The notes beneath the pieces were generated by a model. It ran no database searches. It had not been told where the DNA came from and saw nothing but the letters and a program-made list of their open reading frames with translations. From IMG/VR virus record IMGVR_UViG_3300044551_000092, positions 64,001 to 128,000 of that record: 64,000 nt of DNA; one strand, 5' to 3'. Source of the DNA: a virus (taxonomy: Duplodnaviria > Caudoviricetes). Below are positions 925 through 9,442 of the stretch, one piece after another. A program made the position numbers and the translations under genes. Each line of letters starts with the position of its first letter. The first letter of the stretch is position 1.

Positions 925-1428
925 AAGTCGTATCTAGTAAAAATGCGGTGGCTGAATAATCCTATGGCAAGGATAAGGCACTGTCTATCATGACTTGGTA
1001 AAGTGGGTACAAACCATGACGGTGTCTCACAACTGAGTTTGAGTCCTAGTAAGGGCAACGACAGATAGGTGCTGATCGCTGGGAAGCAAAAGGCAGGCCA
1101 GCTGCTCGTTAGTGAAGCCGACTGGGGCTATGATGGTCGTCCCGGAAAGAACCATCTAAAACTATGCGTGTAGTTGATGCATGAAAATGCTATAAGAGAT
1201 GCTGGCTGTAAAAGTAGCGCAAATCTACACATAATTATATTTTTCTAAATAACATTCTTCCATGCCGCGTGAAATTTGGTGGTAACCAATCCATCCACAG
1301 CTTGCCAAGTATTGGCGGAGAGGGCGGTCGCTCCCCTTTGAGAGCTAATATTTCTGTGTGGTTGAAAATTGCGCTCAGCGATTCAGTTGGAAGTGGAATC
1401 TTCCTCGTATTTTTAGTAGGTATGACTT
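925..1428 (+). ncRNA. ROOL-like large structured ncRNA (~500 nt)
   Basis: Long closing helix 925-947 with 1406-1428, plus ggctgaat with attcagtt. Motifs recalled from ROOL occur in order: AATCC..TGGCAAGGATAAG, TAGGTGCT, ACTGGGG..GGTCGT..AAGAACC, GAAATTTGGTG..AACCAAT, GGTCGCTCCC. Lies in a phage tRNA island. Confidence 0.78.
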
Positions 1429-2857: not shown

Positions 2858-4039
2858 ATGGTAGAAGGAGCCAAAACAAGAAATGTGACTACTGGTCGCA
2901 AAAAAGTCGGAACATTGCCTATTATTATCGGTCTTGATGTTGGATTTGGGAGTATGAAATACTTATCCAACTTAAAGCCAAAACCAGAAGTTATTCCAAG
3001 TGCAGTAGCCGAGGGAACAGTCAGCAGCAGTCGGCTGTTCAATTATAGTGAAATAGACACGGAACATTTAATTGTAACCACAAATGACGGGACGTATTTT
3101 GTCGGAGATTCAGCAATGTATATGCCGAATGGTGAATCAAAGCGAACAAGGATTCGAGATCGCGCAGCCGATCCGCTTAGCCGAGTCCTGTTTCAAACTG
3201 GCATTGGGCTAAGTGTGCCAGATAAAAGTGGAGAATATGACGTGTACGTTGTGACCGGTCTTCCAAATAACGACTATGAAAAAAAGATAAGAGAAAACCT
3301 TCAAGCCTTTTTAGAGAAATCATTCGAAATCAGCTTTAATTTAAGCAAGGATAATGCAATTACGAAGAAAATTAACGTCAAGGGTGTAGAAATTCTTCGT
3401 CAACCGGAAGGTACGGTAACTTATAATCAGTTCAATTTTGATCCACAGCATTTCTTAGTTGCTAGTGAAAAGGCACAGAACTATTTAGGGGTTATCGACT
3501 TTGGCCACTACACAACCGACTATGCTATGTTCCGTGATGGCGTGATCATAGAGGATAACACAGTAAATAACAGTACGGTTGGTGTAGTTCAAGTCTATGA
3601 TAAATTGCGCAGCAAATTGGAAGTATTTTTCGGTGATATGGGTGTTGAGTTTAAAGCGACTGACCGATCACTGGATGAAGTCATTCGAACCGGAAAAATC
3701 CGTTTTGCGGGTCAAGACCATGATGTCAGTGATCTTGTCCGGGAGGCCTCGGAAGAAGTGGCGGCCATCATTGGGAAGAACATTCTCGAATCATGGGGCA
3801 CTGAAGCCAACTATCTTGACGTGATTATTGCCGCTGGCGGTGGTGCTGAAGTCTTTGGTGAGATTATGAAGAAAATATTTGAAGAGAATAAACGTCAGGG
3901 CTTTGACGTGGTTCAGGCTCCGCAATTTACTAATGTCCTTGGTTTCTATATGTATGGAGTTATCTCAGCCGGAGATCGTGAAGATCAGAAAAAAGTCTAC
4001 GACACCTATGTCAAACCTGTATTTGAAATTGCGGCATAA
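2858..4039 (+). CDS. parM: ParM/StbA-family actin-like segregation ATPase
   Basis: Actin-fold motifs: IGLDVGFGSMK (phosphate 1), VTGLP, QPEG, VIDFGHYTTD (phosphate 2), AGGGA (adenosine), NVLG. Confidence 0.9.
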   Translation: MVEGAKTRNVTTGRKKVGTLPIIIGLDVGFGSMKYLSNLKPKPEVIPSAVAEGTVSSSRLFNYSEIDTEHLIVTTNDGTYFVGDSAMYMPNGESKRTRIRDRAADPLSRVLFQTGIGLSVPDKSGEYDVYVVTGLPNNDYEKKIRENLQAFLEKSFEISFNLSKDNAITKKINVKGVEILRQPEGTVTYNQFNFDPQHFLVASEKAQNYLGVIDFGHYTTDYAMFRDGVIIEDNTVNNSTVGVVQVYDKLRSKLEVFFGDMGVEFKATDRSLDEVIRTGKIRFAGQDHDVSDLVREASEEVAAIIGKNILESWGTEANYLDVIIAAGGGAEVFGEIMKKIFEENKRQGFDVVQAPQFTNVLGFYMYGVISAGDREDQKKVYDTYVKPVFEIAA

Positions 4040-4221
4040 TGAAAGACGATTTTCTGCTTCAAGCACGGCTGAGAAAAGATGATATTCTGCTTAAAAAGTA
4101 TTTTTCTAAAATAAAAAAAGGCGACTGGCCCTATGAGATACGACGACTTTTGGAAAAATCCATTAAAACAGAGCAAAAAGAAAAGCAATTATTAGAAAAA
4201 GCAAAAGAAAATCAAGAATAA
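4039..4221 (+). CDS. small basic DNA-binding adaptor, ParR-like (possible ribbon-helix-helix)
   Basis: Coupled to parM (TAATG overlap); LQARLR strand followed by two helices (EIRRLLEKSI). Confidence 0.6.
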   Translation: MKDDFLLQARLRKDDILLKKYFSKIKKGDWPYEIRRLLEKSIKTEQKEKQLLEKAKENQE

Positions 4222-7286: not shown

Positions 7287-7302
7287 ATAGGAAGTGATTG
7301 GC

Positions 7303-9442
7303 ATGACCGTAATAAGTCCCGAAGAAATAGCAAGATTGGAAGCACAGATTCGTGCGGATCCCATTAAATGGGCCTACTGGAAGTTGAAAGATACGAAGGG
7401 AAACCCTTGGAAGGCTAGATGGTACCAGCGTCAGCTATTAACTGATATGGTATCTGGTGTGAAGCATTTAGCTGTCCGGATGGGACGCCGTGTGGGTAAA
7501 TCTGAAACGATGCTTGTTTATGCTGTCTGGTATACGTTCCACCATAAAAATTCCCGAATTCTCTTAGCCGCCCCCTATGAAAGTCAGATTCGGCTCCTGT
7601 TCATGCGGCTCAATGAATTTATTCGTGATTGCGATGAATTAAAAAACAGCGTTGATGTAAACACGAAAAATCCCTTTGTCCTATCTTGGAAAAACGGAGG
7701 AACGATCTTGGGGTTTACGGTAGGTGCTACAAAGGGACAAGCTGGTGCCGCTGTTCGTGGTCAACGGGCTGATTTTATTATGATCGATGAAGCGGACTAC
7801 ATTGACCGTGGTGGCATTGATGCGGTTACGGCGATTGCTCTGGAAGATCCGAACCGAATAGGGATCTGGGTTTCATCAACACCAACGGGTAGGCACGATT
7901 TCTTTTATGACATTTGTATGGATCCGAAAACGGGTTATCATGCCTATCATTATCCGGCCAAAGTCAATCCTGGGTATGATGAGAAGATGGAAGGCGAATT
8001 CCGGGCCACCATGACTTCTCAGGCATACATCCATGAGATCGAAGCTGAGTTCGGTGAAGAAACAGTCGGCGTCTTCAATAAGGCGGCCGTAGAACGCGCA
8101 CGTGATCAGATTTATTACACCTATCGCAATCTCAATGCCTGGGAACAGGAACAATATCGAAAACAGGGAATTGATCTAAGTAAAGTCATTTATCTGAAGC
8201 ATTATGATCGAAAACATCCAGCTCCTGATGCATTGCGTATTATCGGAGTTGACTGGGATAAACAAATAGCTTAATGCAATCTGTCCCTTTCAGGAGTAAT
8301 CCTGTCAAAAGAATTGGGTGAATTGCGGGGAGCCCCTTAGAGCCTGTCTTGCTACTGCGTAAGGATGAAACAAGCCTAAGCGTGAATGCTCATAAAAACA
8401 GACGGGATTGGGTAACCGGGAACTTATGTTCAAGTTCAATCCGCAGCCACTTTCCGAATAGGAAAAGGTTCAAAGGCCATCCTTCGGGCATACTGGTCGC
8501 CAATAGGAGTAGGGCCTGCTTTTGCAGGTGGGTGAGAGCCCCTTAAATCGAAGTGTCCAGCCCCTTATTCAGACATAAGGGAAATGATATGGTCTACGCC
8601 GACTGTTCAATCAGTGTTAAAGTATGGTGAAAGCCACGGTAGTAAGGAAATTTGCAAATGACACACAAATTGTTATTACTGAATACAATGCTGCCATTAG
8701 AAAATTTCAAGTCATTAATCGTGTTGAGATTCCGCGCGGCGAGTTTACTTTCGACCACGCCGTAAAAAAAATCATTGAACTCAACGATACTTATAATCCT
8801 CGTTTTCTATATATTGATGCCGGTTATGGTGAAGCTCAGATTGAAACGCTCAGAAAATATGGCAAAGATCACCCGGAAAGTGGATTAGATAAAAAGGTCA
8901 AACGTATTCAGTTTAGCCAAAAAATACCGGTTGTTGATCCGGCAACAAGAGAAATTGACAATAAAGATGCCAAGAACTTCATGATTAATCAAACCAGTAT
9001 CATTTTGGAGCGTAATCAATTAGTTTTATCACTCTTTGATGATATGATATGGAAACAAATGATGAACTATCAGGTCGTTCGTATTTCGCAAACAGGAAAG
9101 CCGATATATACATCAGTAAATGAACACTCACTCGATGCAATGATGCTGACGATCCTTGGCTTTACGATTGAATATCCAGAACTAACGAAGATCATTGATA
9201 AACCTGAAGTTGCTCGGACATCACATGCAGTAAATCAAACCCATATGAAACAGAAACTGATTAATAAGGTTTTTGGTCACGATCGACCAGTATTTGATGT
9301 GGCGGAACCGAAAAAGAAATTTGAAGAAAAGGATCCGTATTCTTGGCGCTGGCAGTCGGTGCCGCTTGGCTATCGGCCTCACAGGCGTGGGTGGGGAAGA
9401 CGAGGACATACGCCTGGTGGTTTCAGACGAACTAAGATATGA
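7303..9442 (+). CDS. terL: terminase large subunit, two exons (7303-8259 + 8648-9442; ~583 aa spliced)
   Basis: Walker A MGRRVGKS, Walker B IMIDEAD, SSTP coupling motif; nuclease GVDWD|KFA..., YIDAGYG, EHSLDA; exons join in frame. Confidence 0.92.
8260..8647 (+). mobile_element. group I self-splicing intron (388 nt, no homing endonuclease)
   Basis: Exon ends in U paired to the IGS (gggat/gtccc, U:G); terminal G at 8647; P aattgcgggga, Q aatccgcagc, P7 ggccat/atggtc; P10 tgcaa/ttgca. Confidence 0.9.

Follow-up and report, generated by a model that had tools for sequence, protein, structure and literature searches.

What kind of element occupies a stretch of about 500 nt that lies among phage tRNA genes and contains no recognizable protein-coding gene? 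The stretch in question, at positions 925-1428, is located near the left end of the window, i.e., the 64,000 nt of DNA analysed here, which correspond to bases 64001-128000 of a 206,290-bp IMG/VR virus record of 100% completeness according to CheckV. An earlier note on this DNA had proposed a compact ROOL-like giant noncoding RNA.

A tightly folded, gene-free segment in a tRNA island

ARAGORN and Rfam placed seven tRNA genes on the + strand between 646 and 2408, out of eight in the whole genome, and the segment is bordered by two of them:

831-903, + strand: tRNA-Asn(GTT), 21 nt upstream of helix P1 (ARAGORN and Rfam tRNA)
1501-1573, + strand: tRNA-Asp(GTC), the right neighbour, 72 nt downstream of the RNA (ARAGORN and Rfam)

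With tRNA-Asn on its left, tRNA-Asp on its right and five further tRNA genes in the same island, the setting is the one that the earlier note had described. That note had also claimed about 504 nt without a credible ORF and a long-range closing helix of about 23 bp with G:U pairs, and both claims hold. More specifically, the longest ORF overlapping 925-1428 in any frame measures 53 aa, and, as read from the sequence, positions 925-947 pair with 1406-1428 at 22 of 23 positions, including three G:U pairs and leaving a single G.G mismatch (937/1416). The minimum free energy (MFE) fold of the 504-nt segment has exactly this helix as its closing stem. Its fold energy (-163.2 kcal/mol versus -140.9 kcal/mol for shuffled sequences, z = -3.29) was lower than that of all 100 dinucleotide-preserving shuffles, and the GC content of the RNA is 44.9%, versus 39.2% for the genome.

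The RNA belongs to the ROOL family

For the earlier match to ROOL, Infernal searches with the Rfam ROOL and GOLLD models had been proposed as a check. These searches returned a match to ROOL (RF03087) at 926-1424 on the + strand (110 bits, E 1.1e-21), which covers model positions 1-574 of 574 without truncation and exceeds the gathering score of 99.1 bits (curated, Rfam 15), the criterion of family membership. GOLLD (RF01998) gave no match in the window at its gathering threshold and none in 600-2700 at E<=1. Like ROOL, GOLLD is a large, ornate phage or prophage RNA that lies near tRNA genes and forms RNA-only cages, but the two differ in that GOLLD is unrelated in sequence and secondary structure and is larger (>800 nt, 14-mer). 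ROOL was the sole non-tRNA Rfam 15 match in the whole window at gathering thresholds, and a scan of the complete 206,290-bp phage record with the ROOL model detected this single copy. Judged by the score cut-off that defines the family, the RNA does not represent a new class; 925-1428 is a member of ROOL, and hence of a known RNA class, in a compact and divergent variant.

The architecture is consistent with this assignment. Three long-range helices, P1 (925-947/1406-1428), P7 (1074-1094/1361-1383) and P8 (1096-1107/1196-1207), enclose multi-stem junctions as in ROOL, and the conserved core motifs UAUAAG, AGUAGC, GUGAAA, GGUAAYCAAUCC (here GGUAACCAAUCC) and GGUCGCUCC occur at the aligned model positions. 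The elements are listed below, with helix names after Wang et al. in the form in which PMC12990946 gives them and the names of Kretsch et al. (PMC12286853) in brackets where used; G023 is a second compact ROOL, described further below. As MAFFT misaligns the 5' half of compact relative to canonical RNAs, all statements on P2-P5 are based on Infernal alignments and local folds.

925-947, + strand: P1 5' strand, pairing with 1406-1428 (MFE fold; Rfam model 7-22; compensatory changes relative to G023)
948-980, + strand: P2 region, with motif CUGAAUAA at 952-959, inner hairpin 959-963/970-974 and L2 loop AUGGCA at 964-969 (Infernal)
981-1068, + strand: P3 domain, with P3 981-986/1063-1068, remodelled P4/P5 987-1040 and P6 hairpin 1043-1056 (Infernal, local folds)
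1069-1072, 1074-1094 and 1096-1107, + strand: GUGC junction, P7 5' strand and P8 5' strand, respectively (Infernal, high probability)
1108-1168, + strand: apical P9-P11 junction, with P9 1110-1113/1161-1164, hairpin A 1116-1129 (loop GACUGG) and hairpin B 1132-1156 (loop 1138-1150) (local fold)
1174 onwards, + strand: UUGAU junction, followed by the P12 hairpin GCAU-GAAA-AUGC at 1179-1190, UAUAAG at 1191-1196 and the P8 3' strand at 1196-1207 (Infernal, high probability)
1208-1275, + strand: P13 linker hairpin, with AGUAGC at 1213-1218, an AU-rich variable loop at about 1221-1266, CCAUGCC at 1260-1266 and GUGAAA at 1269-1274 (Infernal)
1278-1295, + strand: P14 hairpin, with the near-invariant GGUAACCAAUCC at 1281-1292 (Infernal)
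1296-1359, + strand: P15 arm, with a shortened outer stem and the exact L15 motif GGUCGCUCC at 1326-1334 (Infernal, motif search, MAFFT)
1360-1405, + strand: P7 3' strand at 1361-1383 and P16 hairpin GGAAG-UGGAAU-CUUCC at 1389-1404 (Infernal)
1406-1428, + strand: P1 3' strand, pairing with 925-947

Where the RNA is shorter than other ROOLs

The window RNA was compared with 53 other ROOLs from IMG/VR, collected by two conserved-motif scans followed by Infernal on the whole records, a sample that is biased to RNAs keeping the search motifs, which the window RNA keeps too. No ROOL was present at 7 of the 20 loci of the first motif pattern and at 11 of the 50 loci of the second, which fits a rough expectation of about 13 chance matches per pattern. 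The 53 RNAs measure 546-648 nt (median 596, sd 22), with scores of 244-350 bits, versus 499 nt (z = -4.5) and 110 bits for the window RNA, which is both the shortest and the lowest-scoring of the 54, with less than half the score of the lowest of the others. Published values point the same way: the family mean is 581 nt (Weinberg et al. 2017, PMC5737381), and the solved constructs (PMC12286853, PMC12990946) comprise 526-550 nt for the Ligilactobacillus salivarius hexamer, 580 nt for the Enterococcus faecalis octamer and 598-659 nt for the env-120 octamer. The window RNA is thus shorter than any of these characterised ROOLs, lying about 5-10% below the shortest, that of L. salivarius, and the earlier view of it as a shorter natural variant is upheld.

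Shortening was measured as distances between anchors common to all ROOLs. The P1 strand, P12, the P8 3' strand and the 3' end from L15 onwards keep their canonical length. In contrast, the interval that starts at the P2 motif and ends with the P9 5' strand is 163 nt (178-196 nt in canonical ROOLs), the apical P9-P11 region is 54 nt (88-101 nt), i.e., about 36 nt shorter, the P13 linker hairpin is 68 nt (71-117 nt), and the distance from P14 to L15 is 45 nt (45-81 nt). The missing 75-100 nt therefore come from the P2-P6 region, the apical P9-P11 junction, the disordered linker and P14/P15.

Within these regions, the canonical outer P2 stem is not recognizable in the Infernal alignment, which has low posterior probabilities for P4/P5 and high ones for P6; the P2 motif [GC]UGAA is found in all 34 distinct canonical ROOLs. 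Local folds of the 54-nt P4/P5 region gave only a small hairpin (1026-1037) with a CAAC loop in place of the GNRA loop. The apical domain is predicted by local folds to be still a three-way junction, composed of a 4-bp P9 and two short hairpins of 14 nt and 25 nt, and the Infernal alignment deletes the junction motifs ACAAUAGACG and AAUgCCAAUAA of the model; both AAUAG and NCCAAYAA are absent.

Compared with canonical ROOLs as a whole (RF03087; env-120 and E. faecalis; PMC5737381, PMC12286853, PMC12990946), the window RNA shares P1, P3/P6, P7, P8, P12, the P13 linker, P14, the P15 core and P16, along with the core motifs, the AU-rich variable linker loop and the location among phage tRNA genes. 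It differs in its length and score, the solved octamers measuring 580-659 nt, in lacking GGAUAC and AAUAG, in the replacement of the P5 GNRA hairpin, in its shorter apex and outer P15, and in its P16 loop, which is GUGGAAUC rather than the canonical GCGAAGGC.

As a separate observation from the comparison set, one record (G269, locus L195) carries two full-length canonical ROOLs about 4.4 kb apart, of 595 and 647 nt and scoring 304 and 275 bits, respectively.

The carrier phage and a second compact ROOL

The tRNA island is followed downstream by genes for a ParM-like partition protein, a large terminase, which is split, and a portal. The portal protein shares 34-40% identity with its counterparts in Bacillus phage 0305phi8-36, vB_BceM_WH1, Edson and Moorella phage MTATph1, and 45-54% with proteins on contigs of ~200-230 kb in Bacillus, Paenibacillus, Virgibacillus, Priestia and Alicyclobacillus assemblies; the carrier is a jumbo phage of the Bacillus phage 0305phi8-36-like clade. 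The same phage occurs in DNA runs from sludge bioreactors, soil and compost (several studies), and four partial sets consist of fragments identical to the window.

Relatives were reached through the portal: 23 portal homologues were aligned, 80 related IMG/VR loci were fetched, and 48 records were scanned with the ROOL model. Only two of these 48 records gave a ROOL match, namely the 78-kb fragment G023 and the record G045, which is rated complete, spans 215,870 bp and has terminal repeats. Both carry one identical 511-nt RNA (positions 1501-2011 of loci L118 and L119), which matches the full ROOL model with 86.5 bits (E 1e-16), i.e., under the gathering score of 99.1, so that the family reaches beyond its current annotation. 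The portal of these phages is ~46% identical to that of the window phage.

The two RNAs have the same compact architecture and the same place, directly downstream of tRNA-Asn(GTT), and three motifs specific to this compact subtype, GUGGCUGAAUAAU, AUAAGGCA and the P16 loop GUGGAAUC, are present in both. The G023/G045 RNA differs from the window RNA in that P5 is wholly lost, a partial J9/10 motif (AUAG) and UGG/CCA complementarity for L11-J11/9 are present, and the L15 loop reads UAGCUA rather than UCGCUC.

Further compact members were sought by several routes. Two scans of the JGI metagenome contigs with subtype patterns yielded none, a scan of IMG/VR viral contigs for a universal motif together with the compact P16 loop recovered G023 and G045 only, and searches of viral contigs by an exact 24-nt motif and by a single portal protein gave no close relatives. 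Two loci found with the subtype 5'-motif pattern (L120 and L123) were discarded as chance matches, consisting of AT-rich, coding-like sequence with no tRNA and no ROOL match. No ROOL was detected in 151 sampled Bacilli genomes plus Oceanobacillus and Alicyclobacillus genomes with related phage-like contigs, a search whose filter is lossy and which is not proof of absence. The closest portal relatives, L213 and L214 (51-53% identity, contigs of ~210 kb), have tRNA-Asn at the syntenic locus and no ROOL. Thus, ROOL is sporadic in the 0305phi8-36-like clade and, where found, is compact and follows tRNA-Asn.

In L213, a 516-nt gene-free gap after tRNA-Asn (1048-1563) was considered as a ROOL and rejected, as it has no ROOL motifs and no Rfam match. 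It is nevertheless far more stable than shuffled sequences (z = -5.9) and includes a hairpin that is long and perfectly paired, as well as a terminator-like stem.

Contact elements kept and lost in sequence

In canonical ROOLs, L4 (L3a) and J9/10 (J6/7) are partners in an intramolecular tertiary contact (Kretsch et al., PMC12286853). The corresponding motifs, GGAUAC in L4 and AAUAG in J9/10, occur in 31 and 34 of the 34 distinct canonical ROOLs, respectively, and both are absent from the window RNA and from G023; they are conserved peripheral motifs that lie outside the Rfam membership criterion. The disappearance of both from both compact RNAs reads as a coherent joint loss of a contact, judged from the sequences. 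Likewise, the L5 loop, which is of GNRA type (Rfam consensus GUGA) and engages in a P2-L5 tetraloop/receptor contact, is CAAC in the window RNA and is deleted in G023.

A further contact, the intermolecular in-plane bridge L11-J11/9', covaries in the canonical set (UGGCA/UGCCA, UGGUA/UACCA, UGGAA/UUCCA, UGGUG/CACCA and UGAC/GUCA), with complementarity higher for cognate than for non-cognate combinations (p = 3.6e-4). No L11-J11/9-type complementarity of at least 4 nt was found in the apical region of the window RNA.

Sequence elements of other contacts are retained. The L2-L13' complementarity, which likewise belongs to an in-plane bridge and also covaries in canonical ROOLs (cognate versus non-cognate, p = 0.0016), has a counterpart in the window RNA between AUGGCA (964-969) and CCAUGCC (1260-1266), as either AUGG/CCAU or GGCA/UGCC. 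Such 4-nt complementarity is found at equivalent places in both compact RNAs, which is modest evidence, as 14% of non-cognate pairs reach 4 nt. In addition, the window RNA keeps the L12 GAAA loop (1183-1186), another in-plane element, and the L15 (L18) loop that it keeps exactly is the one involved in contacts between planes.

A natural precedent for a shortened ROOL with an apical change is that of L. salivarius (PDB 9J6Y; PMC12990946, PMC12191101). According to PMC12990946, this RNA differs from the E. faecalis ROOL mainly by an ultrashort apical P10, to which its assembly into a hexamer rather than an octamer is attributed, the other interfaces being the same; apical trimming there alters stoichiometry, and cage formation is not abolished. 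Because the apical P10 sets the hexamer in that description, the most altered domain of the window RNA would be the one that tunes copy number. The L. salivarius ROOL is 27-51 nt longer than the window RNA, in which the whole P9-P11 junction and P4/P5 are remodelled, and it resides on a lactobacillus megaplasmid, whereas the window RNA is carried by a jumbo phage related to 0305phi8-36.

Evidence for selection on the compact fold

The shortness, low score and missing motifs of the window RNA could have a simple explanation, i.e., that deletions have struck a once-canonical gene and that the locus is a decaying relic from which no functional RNA is made. To weigh this, nine helices (P1 inner, P1 outer, P2 inner, P6, P8, P12, P14, P15 inner and P16) were compared between the window RNA and G023. 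In total, 60 of 65 helix positions are paired in both RNAs; of these, 30 are unchanged, whereas 26 differ on both sides and 4 on only one. The P1 closing helix is kept in the G023/G045 RNA with a different sequence, 8 of 22 aligned positions having changed on both sides with pairing kept, and these compensatory changes indicate that P1 is not a chance helix. Similarly, both compact RNAs pair at 10 of the 12 P8 positions, with double-sided changes at 5, 3 of 5 pairs are changed on both sides in the P2 inner stem and likewise in P14, P6 has compensatory changes, and P16, whose loop is identical in the two RNAs, has one compensatory change in its stem. Independently, RNAalifold applied to an unguided pairwise alignment identified 22 pairs changed on both sides. 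This covariation comes from two distinct sequences, with some helix registers picked by eye, and is therefore good evidence rather than statistical proof.

Since 26 of 65 helix positions have changed on both sides and still pair, the comparison argues strongly that the compact fold is under selection rather than a neutrally decaying relic. Decay would account for the lowest score and shortest length among the 54 IMG/VR ROOLs, as well as for the loss of near-universal motifs and of one covarying bridge, and it would agree with the lack of a ROOL in most relatives of the clade, including the two closest, which keep tRNA-Asn, as expected of a gene that is dispensable and often lost. It is, however, hard to reconcile with intact long-range P1, P7 and P8 helices and most hairpins, with deletions confined to peripheral elements while the core motifs are exact, and with a similarly trimmed RNA whose helices covary in a phage of only ~46% portal identity. 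We therefore regard a relic as improbable.

Proposed processing and assembly

Taken together, we propose with high confidence, based on sequence and predicted structure, that 925-1428 specifies a compact, divergent ROOL noncoding RNA whose release would be linked to its flanking tRNAs and which would form a cage with an altered apex.

No promoter-like or terminator-like site above shuffled expectation was found inside the island, and a terminator-like call at 1389-1404 corresponds to the P16 hairpin together with the U-rich P1 strand that comes after it. In view of this lack of convincing signals within the island, we infer that the ROOL RNA and the flanking tRNAs are transcribed as one precursor. 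RNase P and the 3' tRNA-processing enzymes would then excise tRNA-Asn and tRNA-Asp, thereby releasing the ROOL RNA, whose ends would both be clamped and protected by the long P1 helix.

The same lack of a promoter and terminator of its own would also be expected if the segment were a long structured spacer within the tRNA precursor, broken down once the tRNAs have been processed and never existing as an independent RNA, and no RNA run containing the window sequence is listed in the sequencing-run records. Yet a mere spacer would hardly match a 574-position covariance model at E 1e-21 or retain pairing at 60 of 65 helix positions between distant phages, and the L. salivarius ROOL accumulates to rRNA-like levels (PMC12286853). 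A spacer of this kind is, in our judgement, highly improbable.

For the proposed released RNA, the monomer would adopt the flat, multi-junction ROOL fold and would self-assemble, protein-free, into a closed dihedral cage by way of the retained L2-L13', L12 and L15 contacts. Closed dihedral cages have been solved for the E. faecalis and env-120 octamers and for the L. salivarius hexamer (PMC12286853, PMC12990946). Because the apical region differs between hexamer- and octamer-forming ROOLs, the remodelled apex of the window RNA would probably give a ring size or pole closure unlike that of the octamer.

As the L4 and J9/10 partners and the L11-J11/9 pairing are lost, cage assembly could fail or take another form. 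The window RNA might keep the ROOL fold and, its apical bridges gone, act as a monomer, single ring or open half-shell. In favour of this, the L11-J11/9 bridge and the L4/J9-10 docking motifs are unrecognizable, the E. faecalis ROOL also populates monomer and tetramer states in vitro, and mutations in flexible helices block the octamer. However, the inter-plane L15 motif is exact, both the L2/L13 complementarity and the L12 GAAA loop persist, and the L. salivarius ROOL still closes a hexamer with its ultrashort apical helix. We consider a ROOL fold without a closed cage unlikely, though it deserves to be taken seriously.

Closely related is a tentative idea, possible but somewhat doubtful, that the compact subtype is a natural minimal ROOL, with a different copy number or open poles, that has shed the L4/J9-10 and L11-J11/9 contacts jointly while keeping the equatorial ones. 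If so, it would show which contacts suffice for a cage and what determines ring size. Very few natural RNAs are known to build protein-free cages, ROOL among them, and the window RNA offers a ready-made natural deletion experiment in which one docking contact and one ring contact are gone and others are kept. Its use for defining a minimal core, as the earlier note had suggested, may be reasonable, although known tertiary or quaternary contacts are among the elements that it has lost. It is otherwise an incremental addition to a known family and does not bear on ROOL function. The most likely direction for its role would be phage tRNA supply or the take-over of translation in infection, because ROOLs are in fixed association with phage tRNA genes.

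Other features of the island and its surroundings

Several further features were observed around the RNA. Two island gaps of ~150 nt, 1874-2024 (between the Gln and Pro tRNA genes) and 2176-2324 (between those for Thr and Tyr), gave neither an ARAGORN tRNA nor an Rfam match at E<=1, and may hold uncatalogued structured or tRNA-like RNAs. The noncoding tail of the island (2408-2850) has several long hairpins and, as read from the sequence, a strong stem followed by a T-run at ~2693-2743, where the tRNA/ROOL operon probably ends and beyond which the AT-rich promoter region of the ParM-like gene would lie. At the left end, GGTTCGACTCCGG at ~30-43 (within 25-55) resembles a tRNA T-arm, and no tRNA was called there in scans of either the window or the whole genome; 25-55, which precedes the ORF at 99-638, may represent a fragment of a tRNA or a tRNA-like element.

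The ParM-like gene (2858-4221) codes for an actin-type ATPase resembling ParM/Alp7A, which matches a PHROG partition protein (E 2e-51). Relatives have ParM/Alp7A-like genes as well (L213:1564-2971 and L214:1221-2596; Pfam ALP_N), and a small gene of 59-60 aa follows the ParM-like gene, a synteny kept in L213 and L214. One of the ~200-230 kb contigs that carry portal relatives in bacterial assemblies is labelled a plasmid. The ParM-like gene and these contigs suggest a phage-plasmid lifestyle.

Finally, between the large-terminase ORFs 7294-8274 and 8624-9442, positions 8250-8614 on the + strand match the group I intron model below threshold (34.1 bits versus a gathering score of 50; E 6e-7), and a clear group I intron (88.7 bits) lies at L213:6888-7143, beside the terminase ORFs of that relative. 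The terL gene of the window phage is thus probably interrupted by a divergent group I intron.
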